64,000 nt of DNA, from contig CAWJTV010000001.1 of the NCBI GenBank assembly GCA_963845755.1, positions 64,001-128,000 on the forward strand. Reading direction: 5' to 3'. Source of the stretch: an uncultured Planctomycetota bacterium (lineage in GTDB: Bacteria > Planctomycetota > Planctomycetia > Isosphaerales > Isosphaeraceae). Under the pieces are notes generated by a model. That model saw only the letters and a program-made list of their open reading frames with translations. It did no database searches and had not been told where the DNA came from. Shown in pieces: positions 7,401 through 12,082 of the stretch. Position 1 is the stretch's first letter. Each line of letters opens with the position of its first letter. A program made the position numbers and the translations under genes.

Positions 7401-8597
7401 CCACCGTTTCGGATCTGGCTGGCTGGTTGGAACAATTCGCCCCCGCACACCTGGCCGAGCCATGGGACAACGTGGGCTTGCTGTGGGGCGACCCGGCTGC
7501 ACCAGTTCAGCGGTTGATGACCTGCCTGACCGTCACTCCGGGGACCGCCGCCGAAGCGATCCAGGAGCAGGCGTCGCTGATCGTCAGCCACCACCCCGTG
7601 CTATTCCGCGAAGTGAAGCGGGTCCGCGCCGACCTCGCGGACACCAGTCACCTCTGGAAGCTGGCCCGCGCCGGGATCGCGATCGCCAGCCCGCACACGG
7701 CGTTCGACAACACCCCGAATGGGATCAACGACCTCCTCTGCCGTCGGCTCGGTCTGATGGACATCTCGCCGTTGCGGCCGATCGCCTCGGGCCGCCATCC
7801 GGCGGCCGGATCGGCGGGACCGCGATCGTTCAAGGTGGTCGTCTTCACGCCGGAATCCGATCGCGAGGCGGTGATGTCCGGCGCAGTTCGAGGCCGGTGC
7901 GGGCCAGATCGGCGCCTATCGGGAATGCTCGTTCGCGATCCCCGGCCAGGGGACCTTCTTCGGGACCGAAACGACCGACCCAGCCATTGGCCAGCGGGGT
8001 CGCCGCGAGACGGTCGCCGAGCTGCGGCTGGAGGTTGTGTGCCCCGCGGAGAACCTATCCGCCGTGTTATCGTCGATCCGCGCGGGTCATTCCTATGAAG
8101 AGCCCGCGATCGACGTCTATCCGCTCCACGAAACCGAGGCGGCACGGGGCGAACCGGTGGCACCCGGCTCCGGCCGCATCGGCCGGTTTGTCGAGCCGCG
8201 CACCCTGGGCGAATTCGCCGCATTCGCCGGCCGCGTCCTGGGGCGGGTCTCCGTCCAGATGGTGGGCGATCCGCAACGCCCCGTGTTGCGGGTGGCCGTC
8301 GCCTGCGGCGCCGGCGACGATTTCCTCACCGATGCCGCGCATGCCGGGGCCGACGTCCTACTCACCGGCGAGGCGCGATTCCACCGCGGGGTCGAGGCCG
8401 AGGCGCTCGACATCGGCCTGGTCACCGCCGGCCACTATGCCACCGAGCGACTCGGTGTCGAGGACCTGGCCCAGCGCCTGGCCATCGCCTTCCCCGCGCT
8501 GACCGTCTGGCCCAGCCGATCCGAGCGCGATCCCTTCCGGATCATCGCGGCCGGACCCCCCGAACGTCCCGCCGCCGGGGCAAAGTTCCCGGTCTAG
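7397..8597 (+). CDS. Nif3/YbgI (DUF34) dinuclear metal protein with PII-like insert; frameshift near 7886
   Basis: WDNVGLL, SHHPVLF, HTAFD, HSYEEPAIDVYP and GHYATE motifs spread over two frames. Confidence 0.9.
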
Positions 8598-9017
8598 AGC
8601 TCGCCATTCCGACTCGTAGAATAAGTCCTCGATCTCCGGAGTGATACACACCACTCGCTTCGCGGCCACGCGCTGGATCGCCTCCGCGGCTCCGATGTGC
8701 AGGGACCAGGCGAGGAGACCGGCAACCACGACGACGGAGCGGCTCCGGCCGGCGTGGCAGTGGACCAGCACTGGCGAGTGCGATCGCAGGAGGTCTTCCA
8801 ACGCTTCCACGGCCCGCCGTAACATCGCCGAGTCGTTGCCGGGCCCATCGATGACGTCGAACCCCGCGATGGCACCGACGCCCAAGTTGTCGGCGTCTTC
8901 CGCGGTGAGGGTGCCATCGAGGCTCAGCACAGACTGGAAGCCATGTTGATGCAGCAACTCCGCATCATGTGCCTCCGAACAGTTGCCGATCGCAATGTGA
9001 TCGGTGATCCAGTCCAC
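8358..9017 (-). CDS. dual-specificity protein phosphatase family protein (cassette gene)
   Basis: VLVHCHAGRSRS CX5R motif; GTG start at 9017 with GGAGG RBS; the folded domain ends near 8600 and the ORF then reads antisense into Nif3 until 8358 (an out-of-frame TAG lies at 8594). Confidence 0.85.
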   Translation of the reverse strand: MDWITDHIAIGNCSEAHDAELLHQHGFQSVLSLDGTLTAEDADNLGVGAIAGFDVIDGPGNDSAMLRRAVEALEDLLRSHSPVLVHCHAGRSRSVVVVAGLLAWSLHIGAAEAIQRVAAKRVVCITPEIEDLFYESEWRALDRELCPGGGTFGGSGRDDPEGIALGSAGPDGQRGEGDGQALGQVLDTESLGGIVAGGDQADVERLGLDPAVESRLAGE

Positions 9018-9030
9018 GACTCGTCCTCCC

Positions 9031-9130
9031 GCCTCACACAAGACTCAGCGACCTGCCCCGTCGAGAGTTGCCTTCGATTCGACCACGAAGCGCCCCTGCA
9101 GGCTGGGTCCGCTGCAATCGCGGGTGAGGC
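9031..9130 (-). other. attC-like integron cassette recombination site (100 bp)
   Basis: Minus strand GCCTCAC-ccgcga-TTGCAGCGGACC...GGTCGCTGAG-tcttgt-GTGAGGC: R''/L''/L'/R' layout with extrahelical bases, between a stop codon and the next RBS and start. Confidence 0.8.
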
Positions 9131-9150
9131 TCGGTCGATGGGACAAGACC

Positions 9151-9642
9151 TTACGCGCCCGCGGTGGATATCATCTCCAACCAGAGAGCCGGACGCCAGG
9201 CATTTGAGGCGCGAACTTGTCGGAAGTGGAGCATCATCCCGATAAAGCCGAGGGCCAAGACGATGAGGGCCTCGGCGAGGAGATTCCCTCTCACGAAGGC
9301 TCGGATCGGCGGGACGATCGATCCGATCGCATCGAGGGTGACGAAGAGGAAGAGGAACCAGAACGCATGGACGTGCCAGGGGTGCATTGGCGGCTGATTC
9401 GACCCGCAGACCAGATCCACACGAGCACCCGGTTCGAGGCAGACCAGAAACGGCCCCGCAGGGTAACTCGCGAGAGCCACGGCGACAACATGCTCGCCCG
9501 CGGGGACCAGGAACTCGCCCCTCCGATTTCGGCGCAGCTTCCCGGCGAGTCGGCCGTCGATGAACACCCGCAGGGGCAACAGGGCGCACAGATGCCCTGT
9601 GGCTCGCTCGATCGTGATCGTGGCCGCTCGATCCTCCGGCAT
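9151..9642 (-). CDS. hypothetical membrane protein (cassette gene)
   Basis: 163 aa; N-terminal beta domain (LRVFIDGRLAGKL...VPAGEHVV) and two C-terminal hydrophobic helices; bounded by attC-like sites. Confidence 0.75.
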   Translation of the reverse strand: MPEDRAATITIERATGHLCALLPLRVFIDGRLAGKLRRNRRGEFLVPAGEHVVAVALASYPAGPFLVCLEPGARVDLVCGSNQPPMHPWHVHAFWFLFLFVTLDAIGSIVPPIRAFVRGNLLAEALIVLALGFIGMMLHFRQVRASNAWRPALWLEMISTAGA

Positions 9643-9664
9643 GCTGCCTCGCCCGCCAGGTTAG

Positions 9665-9925
9665 CCCAACTTCCGCACCCTACCTCGTAGAACCCCTCGT
9701 TTTCTAGGGTCTGCGATGTTTTTCAGTCACTATGTCCGGGCTGGGTTGGTCGTAGGTCCATCCTCACCATGCTACCGCAAGATCCTGGCCAATCCAGATG
9801 GATACGCTGGGATTTCGTCACTACAATGACCAAAAACAGGGGACACAACGCAGAAAACAAGGTCTTTTCGAGCGCGAACGCCCCCGAAATTGGCTATCTC
9901 TTAATTCCTTCCTGCGGAAGTCGGG
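9665..9925. mobile_element. 261-bp MITE / non-autonomous IS remnant
   Basis: Terminal inverted repeats CCCAACTTCCGCA / TGCGGAAGTCGGG (12/13 match) flanked by a direct TTAG duplication (9661-9664 and 9926-9929); no transposase ORF. Confidence 0.7.
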
Positions 9926-9950
9926 TTAGCTCGCAGTGGATGGGGAGTGG

Positions 9951-10009
9951 GCCTTACGCCACGGTTCAGCGGCCCGCGCAGCGAGGTCCGCTGCAACCGC
10001 TGGATAGGA
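9951..10009 (-). other. attC-like site (59 bp)
   Basis: Minus strand TCCTATC-cagcgg-TTGCAGCGGACC-tcgctgcgc-GGGCCGCTGAA-ccgtggc-GTAAGGC; L boxes nearly identical to the 9031-9130 site. Confidence 0.8.
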
Positions 10010-10078
10010 CAAGAAATATAAAAAATCTCGATTCAATGGGCTGAGATTGCGACTTGCCACCTCGAATGGAGAAGCAGT

Positions 10079-10693
10079 TCACGTCGCCGGCCAGGTCCGA
10101 TCCAACGAAGATTCGGTGATGAATTCGTCGTCCAGGCAGCGGAGATACTCTTCGAGGACCGTTGTCGCTTCGTACTGGATGTGCAGTCCGGCGGCCTCAT
10201 CGGTCAGGTCGGTCTGCGGCTCATCGAACCTGAACACGTACTCGATGCGGGTCGAGCCGTCGCCGATGATGCGAGGCCGACCCTCGCGTACGATCATGCC
10301 CCGACAGTCTGCCTTCCAATCGGCATGCTTGAGCATCAGAACCCGCTCACCCACTCTTAGCTTCGGCGCGAGGCCAGTGATCGGCTTGAGCCCGGCGAGC
10401 CACTCGGCATGCTCGACTCGACGGACCCACTCCTCAAAACTCCCGAATACCATCGTCATTGGCAGCGGCGGCTCCATCGGCATGCGCCTCCACGGGAGGA
10501 CGACCTCCGCGACTTGGGCTGAGCCGTCCCCGAAGGCGAAGAGCACGAAGATGTTGTCCCAACGGCGGCCGATGGCACGGAGAGGGTGGCCGAAGAGGGG
10601 ATGTCCCGGGGCGAGCTCTGTACGAAGCTCATCCTGGAATGCTGCAGCCTCGGAGTGATGATCGATCGGCACCCACCGCTCGGGCCAGAGCAT
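10079..10693 (-). CDS. two-domain hypothetical protein (cassette gene)
   Basis: ATG at 10693 with GGGAG upstream; domain 1 ELRTELAPGHPLFG...RRWDNIFVLF; domain 2 is SH3-like, LRVGERVLML...YVFRFDEPQTD. Confidence 0.75.
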   Translation of the reverse strand: MLWPERWVPIDHHSEAAAFQDELRTELAPGHPLFGHPLRAIGRRWDNIFVLFAFGDGSAQVAEVVLPWRRMPMEPPLPMTMVFGSFEEWVRRVEHAEWLAGLKPITGLAPKLRVGERVLMLKHADWKADCRGMIVREGRPRIIGDGSTRIEYVFRFDEPQTDLTDEAAGLHIQYEATTVLEEYLRCLDDEFITESSLDRTWPAT

Positions 10694-10708
10694 CGATACG
10701 CTACTCCC

Positions 10709-10802
10709 GCCTGACCAGTGATCATGCGACCGCGAGACCGCATCGTGCGCCGTCCCGTATAGGCTGCGGCTCGTAGCGAGGTCGCATCGCGAGCCTATCG
10801 GC
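10709..10802 (-). other. degenerate attC-like hairpin
   Basis: ATGCGACC (10724-10731) pairs with GGTCGCAT (10780-10787); ends in minus-strand GTCAGGC followed by GGGAG and an ATG, the same arrangement as at 9031. Confidence 0.45.
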
Positions 10803-11956
10803 CCACTGATGCGATTGCAAGAAGCCGCCGGCGGAAGAACTCGGTTTCCGCCGGCGCGAACGACGACGCTTCCACGCCGCCTCACGACCCTGTTCGGCGA
10901 ACCGGAACGCCCGACAGTGCCGTCCGAATAACCGGAACGTGACGGCCACGCTCTGTGGTCGCCGCGACGCCGGGGTAGACGTTAGGTGATGGCCAGCAGC
11001 CGCTCGTACTTAATTATGCGGCCCAATTCCCGAACGACACCAGGCCGCCAGGCCCATCCGCCGCCAGGCCACGATACCCCGAGCTCGAGCACTGGCCCAA
11101 ACCGCCCGACTCGCTCGAAGTGAGGGACGGGTGCCATGGGTCAACTCGAGCAGCTTCCAGTGCCGGCCTGGACATGGGTCTTTACGGACACCTCACCCGG
11201 CGCAGTCACGCCGTGAAGGCCCAGGAACGTAGCGACCCGGACGAGGTCGCCCAAACCTGGCGCGCCGTGCTCGTCGAATGCTCCAGCGACCACGAGGACC
11301 GCGCCGCGGTCGAGCGGTTTCCGCCTGTCGTCAATAAGCAATACCCAACCCGCGCCTGAGAAAACACCTGCGCGAAATCCCGAAAGCCGCTGACACCGCC
11401 AGTCCCGAGCCATCAAAGCCTGGTTCAAACCTGGGTAAACGTGGCGGAACAAAGCCCGCGGGTCTCTCGCCGTAAAATCTTGCTCAGAAACGACTTGTAG
11501 CGCGTAAATCCGGCCGCACTTCGCAAAAAGTGTTACCCTGGATCTGAGCGATCTGAATCAGGCCGCAATCAACAGGGCAAAAAACTTCGTGAAATTTTTA
11601 TCTCTCATTGACTTCAAAAGTTGCGCCGAGAGAATGGACAAATCTCACTATAGGTGCATTATCGAAATTCAAAAGTCCGGGCATCCTAATTAAGTAGAGG
11701 CCAGCGGTCCATGGTCAGGGAATGCTGGGATCAGAGCCTGCGCAGTCATAATCGAGTCCACTCAGGCATGACCATGCAACCAAACATGTTATCATGGATT
11801 TACTTTCCAGCAATCCATGATTGCTATCCTCAACATTCAACGAGCCTCACCACACGAGACGATGCCCATACCCAGGAGAATGACAGCGTTAAGCATGCAT
11901 GATCTCGAGGGTCCATCCTTTTTTCAAATCGCGCAAGAAACGATGAGACCAGGATC

Positions 11957-12082
11957 CGAATTCCGCAAATCGAACCCAACCGGCCGCGAGACGCGGCCCG
12001 AAATCCGCAAATCGAACCCAACTGACCGCGCACCGTGGCCTGAAATCCGCAAAACGAACCCAACTGATCGCGCACACCGCCC
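11957..12082. repeat. three tandem 42-bp repeats with core GAAATCCGCAAAWCGAACCCAAC
   Basis: Units start at 11957, 11999 and 12041; partial copies near 12112 and 12150. Confidence 0.85.

Follow-up and report, generated by a model that had tools for sequence, protein, structure and literature searches.

A small, probably decaying integron cassette cluster with GTN attC cores in an Isosphaeraceae-like planctomycete genome

The window analysed here is a 64,000-nucleotide stretch (positions 64001–128000) of contig C1, which is 309,861 bp long, in a 14.27-Mb, 49-contig assembly of an uncultured planctomycete (genome G000). A short array of integron gene cassettes lies on the window's minus strand, flanked by a NIF3 gene and a set of dispersed repeats; every recognisable attC core in it reads GTNAGGC rather than GTTAGGC. 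The array is most probably (at a probability of about 0.6) a small, decaying cluster of attC sites lacking an integron integrase (CALIN) that belongs to the chromosomal integron system of this Isosphaeraceae-like genome, with GTN cores that represent substitutions of the third base of the R' box (T3).

Four attC-type sites in the window

Read on the minus strand from 11161 to 8598, the region has the form of a cassette array in which open reading frames (ORFs) and attC-type sites alternate. The sites are lettered here A (9031–9130), B (9951–10009), C (10709–10802) and D (10879–10980). Their minus-strand GT[ACG]AGGC heptamers start at 9037 (GTGAGGC), 9957 (GTAAGGC), 10715 (GTCAGGC) and 10885 (GTGAGGC), as an initial annotation of the window had reported. 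These four are the only GTNAGGC heptamers on the minus strand between 8594 and 10990, where GTTAGGC does not occur at all. The minus strand of the window contains 17 GT[ACG]AGGC heptamers, and the genome-wide rate is 0.18 per kb per strand; at that rate two extra cores in 2.4 kb are close to what chance alone would give, so a core that lacks a clear hairpin is weak evidence for a site.

Sites were scored with a covariance model, R1, built from the attC sites of the same genome: 45 sites (44 unique) were collected, two short ones were dropped, and 42 were aligned, with the structure set by hand. Site B, of the short class (about 58 nt), scored 49.1 bits with exact coordinates, and a nhmmer search recovered it genome-wide at E=2.2e-9. 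From 10009 to 9951 it reads TCCTATC-CAGCGG-TTGCAGCGGACC-TCGCTGCGC-GGGCCGCTGA-ACCGTGGC-GTAAGGC. The L stem is intact and forms in the predicted fold (z −2.97), but the degraded R'' box, TCCTATC, has two central mismatches with the R' box, GTAAGGC, and the R stem is broken, with both boxes unpaired.

Site A, of the long class (about 100 nt), scored 29.2 bits over model positions 1–58 (E=1.8e-4 in 298 kb), again with exact coordinates; with the search filters off, the match was only partial (10.1 bits). From 9130 to 9031 it reads GCCTCAC-CCGCGA-TTGCAGCGGACC ... GGTCGCTGA-GTCTTGT-GTGAGGC, with TTGCAGCGGACC as L'' and GGTCGCTGA as L'. The R'' box GCCTCAC carries the change complementary to that in R', as the initial annotation had noted, and the two pair at 7/7 positions, as CAC/GTG at the altered triplet. 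The L and central stem is weakened. Folded as single-stranded DNA, the site forms the 7-bp R stem, and its whole fold is no better than those of shuffled sequences (z −0.88); two canonical attC sites folded for comparison gave z −2.65 and −2.38. Site A aligns with 14 other sites of 92–105 nt in G000 and in G001, a genome of the same genus used for synteny and attC comparison, and the alignment includes a common central motif. A candidate close homologue of site A, the 100-nt site at G001:C4:249921 with the same GCCTCAC/GTGAGGC pair, was set aside: it has no extended similarity to the window, and the resemblance is that of the long class.

Sites A and B are on the same strand, separated by 820 nt, and share the stem sequence TTGCAGCGGACC, a 12-mer that occurs 27 times in the genome against about 1.7 expected (28.5 Mb of random sequence). 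They align over all 58 R1 positions, including two unpaired L-stem positions and the unpaired spacers, and differ in the central part, which is 3 nt in site B and about 55 nt in site A. Both are genuine attC sites.

The other two fit the attC layout only partly. Site C is a remnant on the minus strand. It has an L''-like GCGATGC-GACC and an L'-like GGTCGCaTGATC, recognised by eye against the consensus of the 42 aligned sites and correctly spaced before the R' box GTCAGGC, but no R'' box. It received no R1 score in any search, and shuffled sequences fold just as well (z −0.41); the initial annotation had also judged this hairpin the weaker one. Site D is a weak, decayed, long-class attC-like site of 102 nt on the minus strand, with R'' GTCTACC and R' GTGAGGC (two mismatches). 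Its R1 score of 14.4 bits (E=0.0032) came from a search of 601 nt (10600–11200) and would not stand window-wide; the window-wide R1 searches did not report it. The reading of the hairpins as attC sites thus holds for A and B and not securely for C and D, and the GTN-core observation, real for two sites and weaker for two, is partly confirmed. A strong GC hairpin at 10821–10856, in the 76-nt spacer between D and C, is not attC-like (the DNA fold of 10803–10900 has z −3.36, and none of 200 shuffles was as good), and no terminator-like site was called there. One further match to the attC model, of 20 bits at 7777–7830 on the minus strand, falls inside ORFs of the NIF3 region; it is a GC-rich hairpin without L-box sequence, most likely a false positive, and was not counted.

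It is very improbable that the sites are artefacts, whether terminators or generic repeats taken for attC or errors of assembly or polishing. The core bases do rest on the assembly: four low-depth soil-metagenome runs from one study gave contigs lying outside 9031–9037, 9124–9130, 10709–10715 and 10879–10885, and two metagenome contigs beginning at 9951 come from other copies of attC. Rfam has no family at gathering score in the window. Against this, A and B are both matched by a model that takes structure into account and covers about 100 sites beside intI genes, and no terminator-like sites were called; on these two results a reading of the hairpins as terminators or repetitive extragenic palindromes was rejected. 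The replacement of T by three different bases at four places, once with compensation, is also unlike a systematic error.

The integron system of the genome

No integrase is encoded near the array. None of the 38 matches to TIGR02249 in the genome (E<=0.001) is on contig C1, and no tyrosine recombinase match was found on that contig, so the description of the locus as an integrase-less array of co-oriented, attC-bearing cassettes stands. The complete integron of the genome, with intI next to attI and a cassette array, is on another contig, at C3:152.7–162.2 kb. Its intact intI gene (C3:161203–162192, 330 aa) matches TIGR02249 with 484.9 bits against a cut-off of 265 (match at 161245–162186), and the closest named relatives of the protein are integron integrases of Isosphaeraceae, Tautonia and Planctomycetota, at about 70–74% identity.

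The attC family of the window is the one that flanks this gene. The C3 sites are in divergent orientation to intI, the first of them 410 nt from the intI start. The family has the form yCTAAC-8 nt-GCAGCGGACC-stem-GGCCGCTGA-7 to 9 nt-GTTAGnC, within which the L'' decamer of sites A and B is found, and it makes up arrays on C3 (beside intI), C18, C39, C41, C47 and C34. It is present in 59 of the 121 genomes of the bacterial family. Judging from the sequence, the genome apparently has several arrays with more than 100 cassettes and one working integrase. Pieces of intI open four further large arrays (C18:75908–76096, C47:23641–23829, C41:42494–42691 and C39:443994–444658); three of these are fragments covering model positions 1–63 or 1–66 only, and one is a copy with an internal TGA. 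Two length classes of attC site, of about 57–63 nt and about 97–105 nt, are interleaved within the arrays examined in G000, G001 and 16 other genomes; the long class is marked by a conserved central motif of its own (TTTGTGGTAGAATCGA-like).

One proposal of the initial annotation was a planctomycete IntI with relaxed GTN specificity. In its present form this proposal would have the window sites still functional, with an integrase of the lineage that accepts any base at R' position 3 as long as R'' pairs with it, and with the C3 enzyme mobilising the cassettes in trans. Aligned with VchIntIA (PDB 2a3v), the C3 IntI matches over residues 16–327 (E=4.9e-103), the integron-specific insertion included, and by our own count of the alignment it keeps T22, Y26, K160 and G161. 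These residues are named as cleavage-site contacts in the structural account given with the IntI1 mutants, where K171 of IntI1 touches T3 (PMC2811028). K160 is taken here as the VchIntIA equivalent of K171 because that account pairs the neighbouring Gly172 with Gly161 (PMC2811028). With the cleavage-site residues unchanged, the enzyme looks canonical.

Excision of a cassette needs two competent sites. Site A is the only one in the window capable of a correct fold; in B, C and D the R boxes are unable to pair. The insertion of a 273-bp element in the array and the missing terminal attC, both described below, also point to neglect. In favour of function are the perfect 7-bp R stem that site A owes to its compensating change, the recurrence of compensated sites in four genomes (see below), and the occurrence of T3 variants within integrase-linked arrays as well (5 of 83 sites). 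IntI1 also tolerates a T3 mutation in a single partner, as reported for its attC mutants (PMC2811028). T3 is nevertheless kept at 94% of the integrase-linked sites, and none of the 17 variant pairs among 180 sites from 11 further genomes is compensated. Continued function of the window sites is improbable on this evidence, and the relaxed-specificity proposal is not upheld.

The syntenic locus in a related genome

The cassette region is a lineage-specific segment of 2.56 kb (8598–11161). Homology with G001 ends at window position 8597 and picks up again at 11162, so that only the flanks are in common; at the syntenic locus G001 has about 25.8 kb of different DNA, in which R1 gave no attC matches. 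On one side the break falls exactly at the stop codon of the NIF3/DUF34 gene, whose 3' part occupies 8037–8597 on the plus strand (Pfam PF01784, E=8.4e-27). On the other side are dispersed short repeats (11162–11700), where synteny resumes with a match at G001:C2:1664828 that starts from window position 11162.

Variation in R' cores

The R1 search of the genome gave 118 matches, opposite-strand echoes included, and a search of 298 kb of arrays plus the window gave 171. The alignment was made from the best 150 of these 171 matches; the 21 omitted include the forward long sites L013:13096–13195 and L021:5585–5685. After removal of echoes, 103 sites of G000 were left in this best-150 set, and at R' base 3 they have T in 88, C in 8, G in 4 and A in 3. 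None of the window sites has GTT in the conserved AAC/GTT triplet, against 88 of these 103 sites.

The substitutions are unevenly spread over the arrays. In arrays linked to intI or intI fragments, 3, 3, 5, 2 and 3 of 83 sites have a non-consensus base at R' positions 1–5, and GTT is found in 78 of the 83, the canonical genome-wide pattern that the initial annotation had itself held to speak against its reading. The corresponding numbers for integrase-distant sites are 6, 1, 10, 7 and 4 of 20 (6, 1, 8, 7 and 4 of 18 without the window); half of these sites have lost T3, along with other bases.

Further sets were added from G001 (52 sites), five other genera (42 sites) and 11 further genomes (180 sites, from arrays picked for their best-scoring matches, which therefore lean to well-kept sites). 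Among 373 non-window sites with complete R' boxes, from 18 genomes, R' positions 1–5 are changed in 21, 14, 38, 45 and 19 sites. GTTAG is intact in 267 of the 373, and a change at T3 only is seen in 25 (6.7%). Variation in this attC family is thus greatest at T3 and A4, its soft positions, and G1 and T2 are well kept.

Pairing between R'' and R'

By the canonical crossover, R'' base 5 and R' base 3 of one site belong to different cassettes. G000 and G001 have 27 adjacent-site variant pairs, and in no case does the R'' of the cassette to which the R' belongs under the canonical G|TT crossover carry the compensating base, which fits changes made after insertion. R' base 6 behaves canonically, pairing within its own cassette in 77 of 129 cases and within the same site in 57 of 129 (p=0.018).

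Matching within a site is seen at base 3. Compensated CAC/GTG and GAC/GTC sites recur at G001:C4:231009 and 249921, in G000 on C34 (two sites) and C29, at G010:C9:279495 and at G008:C16:213776. They are confined to these four genomes (G000, G001, G008 and G010); the 180 sites of the 11 further genomes contain the 17 uncompensated variant pairs and no compensated one. A shifted crossover (GTT|A) was considered: R' base 6, and base 4 in three clean cases, go with the downstream cassette, and base 3 pairs only within the same site. The effect disappeared in the 180 further sites, and the shift was therefore not adopted. The same-site matching of R'' base 5 and R' base 3 may hint at hairpin-templated correction, the simplest idea, or at T3 travelling with the upstream attC.

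As a separate observation, the array at C34:795651–800229 (a contig end) is distant from any integrase and has nine sites, four with an R' of the form xTCAxGC and three with R'' CTGAC. Two of its sites are compensated GAC/GTC sites, the pair that is also present at the G010 and G008 positions given above.

Drift or survivorship

In the preferred reading, a decaying CALIN, the cassettes would once have been moved by IntI, would then have been left beside, or inserted next to, the NIF3 gene, and would now be eroding. The T3 changes would be drift after insertion at the position of the core that is, with base 4, the least constrained. The signs of decay are several. Pairing between R'' and R' is gone in site B and the whole R'' box in site C, and little of site D can still be recognised; no attC terminates the last cassette, and an element resembling a miniature inverted-repeat transposable element (MITE) has been inserted. 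With a proper fold still possible in site A only, the cluster would be effectively fixed, and its cassettes are probably immobile today.

Experiments with IntI1 are consistent with such a tolerance at T3. An attC with GTA or GTC and a complementary R'' recombined with wild-type attI1 at or near wild-type frequency in the assays reported in PMC2811028. With both partners mutated at T3 the frequency fell 17-fold (GTA) or 150-fold (GTC), and a GTC attC was not detectably cleaved in vitro, according to the same report (PMC2811028). For IntI1, these experiments show T3 to be dispensable in a single partner. On these data one would expect a minority of natural cores to be GTN, and poor excision of any cassette that lies between two such cores.

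Several observations weigh against simple drift. A T3-only change at both secure sites has a naive probability of about 0.0045, which becomes 3e-4 and 2e-5 with the addition of sites C and D; these values are post hoc, it was the cores that led to C and D, and related genomes do not count as independent samples. Outside T3 the four R' boxes are unchanged (0 of 24 positions), in contrast to the many changes in the R'' boxes of B, C and D; under neutral decay both boxes ought to have been affected. T2 is kept far better than T3 in the integrase-distant sites, where it is lost in 1 of 20 and T3 in 10 of 20. The change in site A is compensated (C-G), and double variants with changes at both R'' base 5 and R' base 3 are enriched among the 368 sites in which both boxes are complete (10 observed, Fisher p=7e-5); 9 of these 10 are Watson-Crick complementary. 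The R1 seeds, finally, were chosen for CTAAC/GTTAG, so that variants are under-detected in the census.

These points bring in the other proposal of the initial annotation, that the cassettes are locked by the substitution. In a genome with an active IntI, cassettes outside an integron would persist only if both flanking sites were dead for excision, and the run of GTN cores would record selection or survivorship, with T3 lost from each R' in succession, a change that would block cleavage between attC sites and spare the cassette leader. Two secure and two weak sites that are all T3-only, against a base rate of 6.7%, would fit this, as would R' positions that are otherwise untouched as R'' decays. 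The drop in recombination of double T3 mutants and the failure of GTC cleavage reported for IntI1 (PMC2811028) would fit it too, as would the intact intI gene of this genome. A second run of this kind, GTAAGGC, GTCAGGC and G-TAGGC, occupies the distal end of an array from a different genus (sites 4250, 3679 and 956 of L071, G051:C4:1920000–1932000).

Other evidence stands against locking through T3. Adjacent T3-variant pairs number 5 of 311, with 3.2 expected, which is no clear overall enrichment. Any inactivating change would serve, and changes at G1, which are more disabling in IntI1, are rarer here. The loss of R'' has already inactivated sites B, C and D, and these defects would lock them anyway. 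The published figures are for attC x attI1 recombination by IntI1, that is, another integrase and a reaction other than the excision in question, and the pattern was chosen post hoc. A survivorship footprint is on balance unlikely, if worth keeping in view. The extension of the idea, in which T3-only runs mark cassettes that have permanently escaped from an integron and the rest of R' is kept since it doubles as the cassette leader, is quite doubtful.

Cassette genes, an inserted element and flanking sequences

The cluster contains three promoterless cassettes, all on the minus strand; the extent of two of their reading frames has been corrected. Cassette 1, between sites C and B, encodes a 204-aa protein of no known family, from an ATG at 10693 to 10079 (minus strand; no match in a Pfam search); the core of site C lies 16 nt before this ATG. 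A 268-aa ORF from 10885 reads through site C, and the 204-aa frame (10693–10079) is the likelier gene. Its residues 22–90 are 50% identical (tblastn) to a cassette ORF of the C18 array at C18:79559–79768, which sits between attC sites at 79415–79473 and 79805–79862.

Cassette 2 (9151–9642, minus strand) encodes a small membrane protein of 163 aa and no known family. Hydropathy windows exceed 1.6 at its two hydrophobic segments, at about residues 91–113 and 115–143; the protein has no Pfam match and no paralogue in G000. In the leader of this cassette, between site B and the membrane-protein gene, is the 273-bp non-coding MITE-like element (9661–9933). It has 13-nt terminal inverted repeats, CCCAACTTCCGCA and TGCGGAAGTCGGG, with TTAG at both ends, and there is one other copy in the genome, 99% identical, at C34:774038–774310. 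The element is probably a recently mobile MITE.

Cassette 3 (8358–9017, minus strand, GTG start at 9017) encodes a dual-specificity phosphatase (Pfam DSPc PF00782, 38.7 bits against a cut-off of 33.5) with the motif HCHAGRSRS. The frame has no stop at or near 8594 and extends for about 80 codons to 8358, antisense to the NIF3 gene. No attC follows the phosphatase gene, which belongs to the last cassette. The phosphatase frame and the NIF3 gene have CTAG in common at 8594–8597.

Upstream of the array, a scan for promoters found a sigma-70-like site on the minus strand at 11927–11899, which is a consensus match only. The repeats at 11162–11700 and 11957–12070 have many copies, at 70–87% identity, in both G000 and G001, and copies also adjoin the broken intI on C39 (442985–443503). 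Three tandem units of about 47 nt (GAAATCCGCAAATCGAACCCAAC...) lie within 11950–12070, and an 18-nt inverted repeat is present at 11007–11024 and 11679–11696.

Relation to known systems

By definition a CALIN has two or more attC sites and no intI close by; in the survey that introduced the term, about half of them were in genomes with an IntI elsewhere, and many were neighbours of insertion sequences (PMC4889954). With co-oriented attC sites and no nearby integrase, the window array falls under this published definition (PMC4889954). As in the CALINs described there (Cury et al. 2016, PMC4889954), two or more co-oriented attC sites lie within 4 kb, intI genes and pseudogenes are absent from the surroundings, an IntI is encoded elsewhere in the genome, and dispersed repeats or mobile elements adjoin. 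The differences from that description are that the window sites were identified with a lineage-specific model and not with that of IntegronFinder, that every recognisable R' has lost T3, and that only one of the four sites can pair its R boxes.

Integrons of Planctomycetes were already included in that survey (PMC4889954), and a taxon-specific attC model for Planctomycetes is among those given by Ghaly et al. 2021 (PMC8352920). The window array resembles sedentary chromosomal integrons of Planctomycetes, as far as these are described in those papers, in that its attC family is that of the arrays of the genome and in that the IntI has its relatives in Isosphaeraceae and Tautonia; it differs in that the cluster is detached from intI and attI and is degraded.

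The closest experimental parallel is the set of GTT mutants of attCaadA7 and attCVCRd assayed with IntI1 (Frumerie et al. 2010, PMC2811028). They include the same GTA and GTC substitutions of T3, with a complementary R'' as in site A, and the reported frequencies predict that sites recombine with one mutated partner and recombine poorly with two (PMC2811028). In that work, class 1 and Vibrio sites were mutated in the laboratory and assayed mainly in attC x attI reactions (PMC2811028). The window variants, by comparison, are natural, belong to a distant lineage and mostly lack a compensating R''.

As a locus, the window array is a routine CALIN; the multi-array integron of its host genome, with more than 100 cassettes, is unusually large. 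The census of R' boxes is a natural counterpart of the mutagenesis of the GTT triplet in IntI1 studies. If a T3-only run were indeed a survivorship footprint, it would be a sequence mark that separates domesticated from mobile cassettes, and it could be used to study gene loss and fixation in sedentary arrays.

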